Positions 35,937 through 36,645 of a DNA stretch of 64,000 bases are shown in pieces. The notes below the pieces were generated by a model. The model was not told where the DNA came from, did no database searches, and worked only from the letters and a program-made list of their open reading frames with translations. Position 1 is the first letter of the stretch, and every line of letters begins with the position of its first letter. The position numbers were made by a program, and so were the translations under genes. Origin of the DNA: a virus; IMG/VR virus record IMGVR_UViG_3300024259_001888, positions 1 to 64,000 of that record, one strand, 5' to 3'.

Positions 35937-36566
35937 CTACCCACTCTCTTTTATCGTTTGAATAATAAGCTCTTCTTTAGTAAGCTTACTTGGATTCCAA
36001 GAACTGCCAGATATAATATGCTGAATGCATGACCATGAAATTTTAAATTTATCAGCTATTTCTTGAATGGTCCATCCTTCAATATATCCTAAGCATCTAA
36101 TTTCTTTAACACTTCTATTCTTGAGTTTGACATTAGGAGCTTCTTTTCCGAATTTTCCATACATAGGATTCTTTTTTCCAGATTTATTTTTACCGTAAAA
36201 ATTATTATTTTCTCCAGAATTATGAATTTTCATGTGTTTAGAATTAGTTAAACAATTAAGATTATTTATGTGATCATTTAACTTATTATAATTTCCATCT
36301 TCATTTTTTTCATTGTGATGAATATGATATCCCTTAGGAATAATCCCCTTCCAAGCTAACCATTGAAGATGACACACTTTAATCTGTTTATAATATTTTC
36401 CATTAATAGTGATGGAAATCACTCTATATCCCTGATGAATATATGGAATTAATTTCTTTTCAGTTATCTTATTTCTTATATAACTACCATCTTTAGCAAT
36501 AATAAGAGTTTTATCAATTTTTCCAGTTAAATTTCTTAAAAATTTCATTTTCATGATTTCTCTCAC
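35937..36566 (-). CDS. HNH homing endonuclease
   Basis: HIHH...NKLNDHINNL..SKHMKIH; GENNNFYG repeats; HTH. Confidence 0.88.
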   Translation of the reverse strand: MREIMKMKFLRNLTGKIDKTLIIAKDGSYIRNKITEKKLIPYIHQGYRVISITINGKYYKQIKVCHLQWLAWKGIIPKGYHIHHNEKNEDGNYNKLNDHINNLNCLTNSKHMKIHNSGENNNFYGKNKSGKKNPMYGKFGKEAPNVKLKNRSVKEIRCLGYIEGWTIQEIADKFKISWSCIQHIISGSSWNPSKLTKEELIIQTIKESG

Positions 36567-36585
36567 AATCTCTCCCTTCTAATTT

Positions 36586-36645
36586 AAGGACAAGAAAAGA
36601 AGTGAGAGAATACTCCTCTTTCGGGAGCTACCCTATCTTGCCCTT
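36586..36645 (-). ncRNA. Putative cis-regulatory three-way-junction RNA, copy A
   Basis: P1 AAGGGCAAG/CUUGUCCUU; P2 GGG-UAGCU-CCC; GAAAG; P3 whose loop segment UUCUCUCAC complements GUGAGAGAA at the HNH start codon. Confidence 0.6.

Follow-up and report, generated by a model that had tools for sequence, protein, structure and literature searches.

The window, meaning the whole stretch of 64,000 nucleotides analysed here, comprises bases 1-64000 of an 84,335-bp IMG/VR viral contig (38% G+C; estimated 62% complete) from an uncultured, lytic-looking marine phage. Four int-alpA-type leader RNAs are present on the contig. Copies A and B lie in the window, in a part where the minus strand is the coding strand of all genes, and copies C and D lie beyond it, at contig positions 72256-72202 and 78091-78038. 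DNA of the contig was found in seawater metagenomes from several studies, and the capsid protein that it encodes shares only 24-27% identity with its counterparts in isolated phages.

Copy A is located between a small-protein gene, with its stop codon at 36656-36654, and an HNH homing endonuclease gene (35937..36554, minus strand; PHROG 59 HNH, 3.3e-10). Its three-way-junction core (36588..36643, minus strand), delineated by a match to the Rfam family RF02996 and by folding, follows the order P1-UA-P2 (loop UAGCU)-GAAA-P3-U(U)-P1'. On this strand, P1 pairs 36643-36636 with 36595-36588, P2 is a GGG/CCC stem preceded by the junction UA, and P3 (36618-36597), preceded by GAAA, displays the loop UAUUCUCUCA (36603..36612), which is complementary to two sites in a tail that begins UUAAAUU. 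Site 1, the 'decoy', is GGGAGAG (36570..36576, minus strand), a 7-nt complement of the P3 loop with a duplex energy of -9.0 kcal/mol. Site 2, GUGAGAGAA (36558..36566, minus strand), lies on the Shine-Dalgarno region of the HNH gene, forms 8-9 bp with the P3 loop at -10.3 kcal/mol and ends 3 nt before AUG 36554. According to fold prediction, the core alone forms the three-way junction (-18.5 kcal/mol); with the tail included, the predicted MFE structure is one long helix in which the P3 loop and 3' arm pair with both purine sites, and this nested alternative reaches -30.0 kcal/mol versus -22.7 kcal/mol for the junction plus P4 in a model that ignores pseudoknots.

A first-pass annotation, made from the letters alone, had described two elements of the same architecture at the positions of copies A and B, and we confirmed both, on the minus strand, together with the exact complementarity of UUCUCUCAC to GUGAGAGAA (36566-36558) in copy A. 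It missed the second complementary site (36576-36570 in A, 50770-50765 in B) and the hairpin P4 that displays the Shine-Dalgarno sequence, and the P1/P2 junction that it read as AGAU is actually UA, the next G opening P2. It further held that the 9-bp pairing covers a GTG start codon. HNH gene A and the HNH_3 gene that follows copy C are 43% identical, and their N-termini align from AUG 36554 (MKMKFL with MKVKFL in the paralogue), which points to AUG 36554, not GTG 36566, as the most likely start. With that start, the pairing would cover the Shine-Dalgarno region and probably not the start codon.

Leader and HNH gene together constitute cassette A (approximately 35876..36653, minus strand), inserted between the small-protein gene and a GT9 gene. 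The cassette was intact and unchanged in seawater DNA contigs from public runs, and no contig skipping it was found in the public runs examined; metatranscriptome contigs from public runs span only 36836-37111, in the gene upstream of the leader. A sigma-70 scan detected no promoter before copy A, although the phage's own promoter types may differ. As a separate observation, the small-protein and GT9 pair is duplicated in the window (18831-19154 / 17633-18844 and 36654-37043 / 34781-35875); the duplicated small proteins are 31% identical, and the HNH cassette splits the second pair only.

The stop codon of the upstream gene lies 3 nt before the start of copy B. Its core (50776..50845, minus strand), supported by our models R1, R2 and R3 and by the MFE fold, contains a P1 pairing 50844-50836 with 50785-50777, the junction UA, a 9-bp P2 with the loop UAGCU, the joining letters GAAAA, a P3 of GAAAG/CUUUC and the junction CU. 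The P3 loop AUUCUUGA (50793..50800, minus strand) is complementary to both sites in the tail, which begins AAAAAAAA. Site 1, UCGAGA (50765..50770, minus strand), forms six pairs with the loop, one of them G-U, at -5.6 kcal/mol. Site 2, UCAAGAA (50758-50752), is exactly complementary to the loop letters UUCUUGA, as the first-pass annotation had it, and falls within the loop and 3' arm of P4, a 7-bp hairpin (50747..50765, minus strand) in the predicted MFE fold; the Shine-Dalgarno sequence AAGGA is within the 3' arm of the P4 stem. The MFE fold of copy B is the three-way junction (z -3.0 to -3.6), and the only promoter that the sigma-70 scan placed before copy B overlaps the RNA itself.

The annotation's further view that copy B precedes a GIY-YIG relic proved sound. 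The remnant (50678..50740, minus strand), an AUG at 50740 followed by about 20 codons (MIKKFYVYAYLDPRKK...), aligns with the N-termini of full GIY-YIG genes behind the leaders of related phages and then diverges; a protein-family search with the ORF that begins MIKKFYVYAYLDPRKK gave no match to its GIY-YIG-like N-terminus. The remnant is in frame with a conserved phage gene (50240..50659, minus strand) that has a native Shine-Dalgarno sequence and AUG 50659, and the closest relative (L140) has the same ribosome-binding site and start sequence. Moreover, in five relatives the upstream gene at site B is followed immediately by the orthologue of residues 28-166. From this gene order and the remnant alignment, copy B is evidently the leftover of a decayed cassette whose gene body was deleted, namely a leader and about 20 GIY-YIG codons fused in frame to the conserved gene.

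Beyond the window, copy C is followed by an HNH_3 gene and copy D by an HNH_3 + NUMOD3 gene. In each of the four copies, the gap between leader and gene (the GIY-YIG remnant in the case of B) is 30-45 nt; the P4 stem of C and D does not contain the Shine-Dalgarno sequence, which lies in the loop of that hairpin. Several further features were observed around these copies. The letters (A)AGUU/CAGUU stand directly 5' of P1 in B (50850-50846), C (72261-72257), D (78096-78092) and the related L050 (upstream of 1572), and may represent a phage promoter, a processing site or a piece of the target site. Tiny ORFs occur just past site 1 in the tails of C (72200-72170; AUG AUA UAG) and D (78036-78003; six codons, with a UGA overlapping the main AUG) and at L018:3644-3681; they are absent from some members, and translational coupling is possible. 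The genes flanking cassette C (72263-73309 and 70689-71612, in L003) share 24-31% mutual identity in tblastn and are apparent paralogues. The contig also encodes an intein with a LAGLIDADG endonuclease (Pfam) in a DegT-type aminotransferase gene (75086-77317; L003:11187-13418), absent in the L018 orthologue and present in that of L033.

The int-alpA family and its fold

Copies A and B are almost certainly divergent copies of, or lie at the edge of, a catalogued family, int-alpA (RF02996). In a permissive scan covering 201 nt, copy A aligned with the full length of the RF02996 model (positions 1-71) at 36643-36574, with 31.9 bits against a gathering cut-off of 35.8 bits and an E-value of 3.3e-5, which by our own arithmetic rescales to about 3e-6 for the whole contig and one family. 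Copy C exceeded the cut-off in a whole-contig search (46.5 bits). Copy B gave no match to RF02996 at E<=10; it was recovered by a model built from copy C alone (R1; 32.2 bits, E 1e-5 genome-wide), which also recovered copy D (59.8 bits), and it scored 61.6 and 58.2 bits with R2 and R3, likewise built here. Copy A is the most divergent of the four contig copies, given its 12.7 bits with the copy-C model; broader models agree, the models built in this analysis giving it only 11-14 bits. At gathering thresholds, an Rfam scan of the window returned no match.

The junction letters provide a second line of comparison. All four copies read P1-UA-P2-GAAAA-P3-CU-P1', with GAAA and U(U) in copy A, and RF02996 has the same UA, GAAAA and CU, together with a purine site in its 3' tail (model positions about 66-71) that complements the P3 loop and corresponds to site 1 of A, B, C and D. 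Bacterial members share the whole layout of site 1, P4 and site 2. A pattern derived from the Rfam consensus recovered bacterial members, mostly in Betaproteobacteria, at 39 loci with P1 pairing and the same tail layout. What differs is the setting. The family is named for a site between integrase and alpA genes, and its bacterial members reside in integrative islands by integrase and primase genes, whereas the contig copies head HNH or GIY-YIG cassettes and lie between structural or glycosylation genes and endonuclease genes. Among 78 ORFs neighbouring 22 bacterial member loci (ORF cut-off 70 aa, which leaves out AlpA), 12 matched Phage_integrase and others matched Toprim and primase domains. 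E. coli K-12, its intA-alpA region included, contained no RF02996 match.

The family itself is therefore already known, and the contig copies are further members of it; the earlier supposition of an uncatalogued element fell with the RF02996 matches. Neither copy matched a ribozyme family in Rfam even at E<=10. Rfam types RF02996 as 'Gene; sRNA', and our literature search found no published function or mechanism for it; we take the int-alpA motif to be one candidate of a 224-motif survey. Other identities were considered and rejected. Self-cleaving ribozymes (hammerhead, twister, pistol, hatchet and others) had no model match, and the P1/P2 junction is UA and not CUGAUGA; an intrinsic terminator or attenuator was rejected, with no terminator-like site in the copy A or B region and no U tract; and a tRNA reading of the elements was rejected as well.

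Subtypes were apparent within the family. The twin of copy A, located in a related phage (L018:145-204), differs from it in P1 by compensatory changes; a search with the copy-A-subtype pattern regained only this known relative, its four other matches being chance. The P2 hairpin GGG-UAGCU-CCC (36633-36623) is letter-identical in the otherwise unrelated L149, L151, L163 and L187, one of them bacterial, and most members have other P2 sequences.

The covarying three-way junction proposed in the first-pass annotation was upheld in 18 relatives from viral contigs. Across these sequences, 91.9% of cells pair, as opposed to 69.9% in shuffles and 37-54% in slid controls. Sixteen of the 18 pairs change on both sides, all three helices covary, and the covariation score of 0.659 (0.237 in shuffles) was matched by none of 500 shuffles. 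These pair counts come from an alignment fitted to the model, in which the search pattern had already constrained part of P1 but neither P2 nor P3. Furthermore, G-U pairs occur on the sense strand only, and the junction nucleotides do not vary, in contrast to the stems. A loose home-made structural descriptor was set aside: it found B and C, yet it matched 0.8 times per shuffled genome and proves nothing alone.

The claim that the P3 loop complements the downstream initiation region was likewise substantiated, by covariation between loop and tail. Among 19 phage members, the cognate duplex averaged -8.2 kcal/mol versus -4.5 kcal/mol for non-cognate combinations, none of 20,000 tail permutations reached the cognate score, and none of 2000 sets of shuffled P3 loops paired as well with the tail. 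Both sites were found in 49 of 52 members, site 1 starting a median of 6-7 nt past P1' and site 2 ending a median of 6-7 nt ahead of the start codon. Their pairings with the loop are predicted to be almost equally stable, and about five of about eight loop nucleotides take part in both. In the family layout, site 2, including the Shine-Dalgarno sequence, is in the loop of the fourth hairpin P4, whose mean length of 5.33 bp exceeded the 3.72 bp of shuffles (0 of 1000 as high). The junction plus P4 is the MFE fold of B and D, and comes within 0.2 kcal/mol of it in C.

Co-mobility with endonuclease cassettes and the genes downstream

A search with the capsid gene yielded 31 related contigs, three of which carry the RNA: L018 before an HNH gene at a different site, and L049 and L050 (52.4 and 47.9 bits with RF02996) before full GIY-YIG genes. 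The RNA was absent from one relative that is 89% complete. At the positions corresponding to cassettes C (L018, L033, L019) and D (L018, L033), the flanking genes are adjacent, with neither RNA nor nuclease gene. The flanks of cassette A are directly adjacent in relative G002 (L144), again lacking both, and adjacent too in the paralogous small-protein/GT9 pair of the window (18831-19154 / 17633-18844). Each insert has the RNA at its 5' edge, and a similar cassette of HNH gene and leader occupies another site in relative G001. Given the empty sites in related phages, where RNA and gene are both missing, the leader evidently travels with the nuclease cassette.

Within the phage clade of the contig, the leader is present at eight of ten free-standing endonuclease genes; genes without it include contig 78738-79421 and L033:5169-5687. 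The latter, an HNH gene 46% identical to that of copy D, abuts its preceding gene with no room for a leader, which indicates that an HNH gene can exist without the RNA. The former (L003:14839-15522, minus strand) is a full-length GIY-YIG-like gene that abuts a preceding 938-aa gene; its orthologue L018:234-659 (G001) does have a leader, the copy-A-type L018:145-204.

The association proved narrower than the first-pass annotation implied. Travel with both HNH and GIY-YIG genes was borne out by the empty sites but is not general: RF02996 matched none of 50 records of unrelated phages that encode distant HNH or GIY-YIG relatives, and model R2 none of 88 such loci. Protein searches from copy C's HNH gene gave almost no relatives, and a pattern based on loop and tail sequences of C and D hit 13 viral contigs without any model match, which we regard as chance. 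A pattern of P1 plus the junction letters recovered ten further viral contigs, and seven of the 13 pattern-found records were over the Rfam cut-off. The genes behind these leaders encode HNH_3+AP2, CapR-domain, radical-SAM, glycosyltransferase-like and unknown proteins. Because the leader also heads radical-SAM, glycosyltransferase-like and unknown genes in other phages, its role would not be nuclease-specific.

Two side observations concern these other phages. CapR-homology proteins follow int-alpA-type leaders at L146:3628-4449 and L154:7963-9108, on unrelated contigs, one with a treble-clef zinc finger. In addition, near-consensus -10 boxes, several with an upstream TG, stand just before P1 in L149, L157, L163, L151, L153 and L146, so that transcription there would start at the leader itself.

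Proposed control of initiation and competing explanations

We lean towards a leader that controls translation initiation in cis and is portable within the nuclease cassette. The order of parts is three-way junction P1-P3, linker with site 1, P4 with site 2, start codon and nuclease gene. In this arrangement, pairing of the P3 loop with site 2, in a kissing or pseudoknot interaction with the loop of P4, would mask the ribosome-binding site, and pairing with site 1 would leave it free. Production of a nuclease that may be harmful would thereby be set, or toggled, at a low level at any site of insertion, strongly transcribed structural operons among them. The two-site design could also serve something other than initiation control.

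Known systems offer partial parallels. In SAM-II and preQ1-class pseudoknot riboswitches, pairing of a loop or tail with the ribosome-binding site is the expression platform; these have a known ligand and no decoy site, whereas for the int-alpA leader nothing points to a ligand and the genes that follow it are mutually unrelated. Closer in setting are the homing endonuclease genes of the T4 type, in which RNA structures repress translation by sequestering the ribosome-binding site (PMC2988022). These hairpins (I-TevI, I-TevII, I-TevIII, segB and mobE of Aeh1), too, act in cis just upstream of free-standing or intron-encoded endonuclease genes, masking the Shine-Dalgarno sequence and limiting translation from read-through transcripts (PMC2988022). 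They are, however, simple and local and are relieved by a late promoter inside the hairpin (PMC2988022), whereas in the int-alpA leader a junction loop would pair with either a decoy or a Shine-Dalgarno sequence displayed in a separate hairpin, and one sequence family is common to unrelated genes. No promoter-like site was found between junction and start codon in A or B, bearing in mind that phage promoter types may differ.

The leader might instead mainly protect or process the mRNA, shielding the cassette transcript from 5'-end-dependent decay or marking a cleavage site at which it is cut away from the polycistronic RNA upstream, with the loop pairing only compacting the fold. The length and good conservation of P1 and the near-consensus, partly extended -10 elements that end 4-6 nt before P1 in several other phages would suit such a role. 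We nevertheless consider it unlikely, because it leaves the match of loop to Shine-Dalgarno, the canonical spacing and the covariation unexplained, and because the contig copies have no convincing promoter just upstream and no match to a ribozyme or processing family. Equally improbable is a sensor, autoregulatory or riboswitch-like, whose junction (UA / GAAAA / CU) recognises a small molecule or a protein, perhaps the endonuclease itself, and so shifts the loop between the sites. Near iso-energetic, mutually exclusive pairings and invariant junction nucleotides amid varying stems are what such a device would call for; against it, no ligand or partner is indicated, the junction is small, and the great diversity of downstream genes argues against a metabolite or a gene-specific autoregulator.

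We give little credence to a trans-acting small RNA whose P3 loop targets other messages. The Rfam type label, and a U run after P1 in some members (eight U in L049) that might be a terminator, speak for it, but the best targets lie in cis, twice within 40 nt and specific to each copy, and the contig copies lack a U tract and any terminator-like site that we could find. Chance resemblance, or a signal at the DNA level such as one for recombination, is strongly disfavoured and very improbable: matches of the loose descriptor to shuffled genomes and the weak scores of copy A with our own models could be taken to favour it, yet the covariance-model scores, the covariation of three helices, the sense-strand-only G-U pairs, the cognate loop/tail matching and the recurrence in many unrelated contigs and bacterial genomes speak against it.

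A bolder form of initiation control, which we put forward only tentatively and regard as doubtful, would make int-alpA a bistable switch of translation, portable and widespread among mobile elements, in which a signal-sensing junction moves the loop from the decoy to the kissing contact. The candidate signal would be a protein, the ribosome, temperature or a small molecule, of cellular or phage origin. If true, the switch would determine when selfish nucleases and island genes are expressed, would assign a function to an orphan RNA family and would constitute a new regulatory design that combines a decoy with kissing-loop masking.

Collectively, this locus and its relatives present a cis leader co-mobile with homing-endonuclease cassettes, with a conserved four-helix layout and two mutually exclusive, covarying pairings, of which one covers the ribosome-binding site. 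Copy B illustrates what remains of such a cassette after decay, and a conserved phage gene may now be under the influence of its orphan leader. Control of initiation by the leader could explain how selfish nuclease genes remain harmless after landing in highly expressed phage operons.
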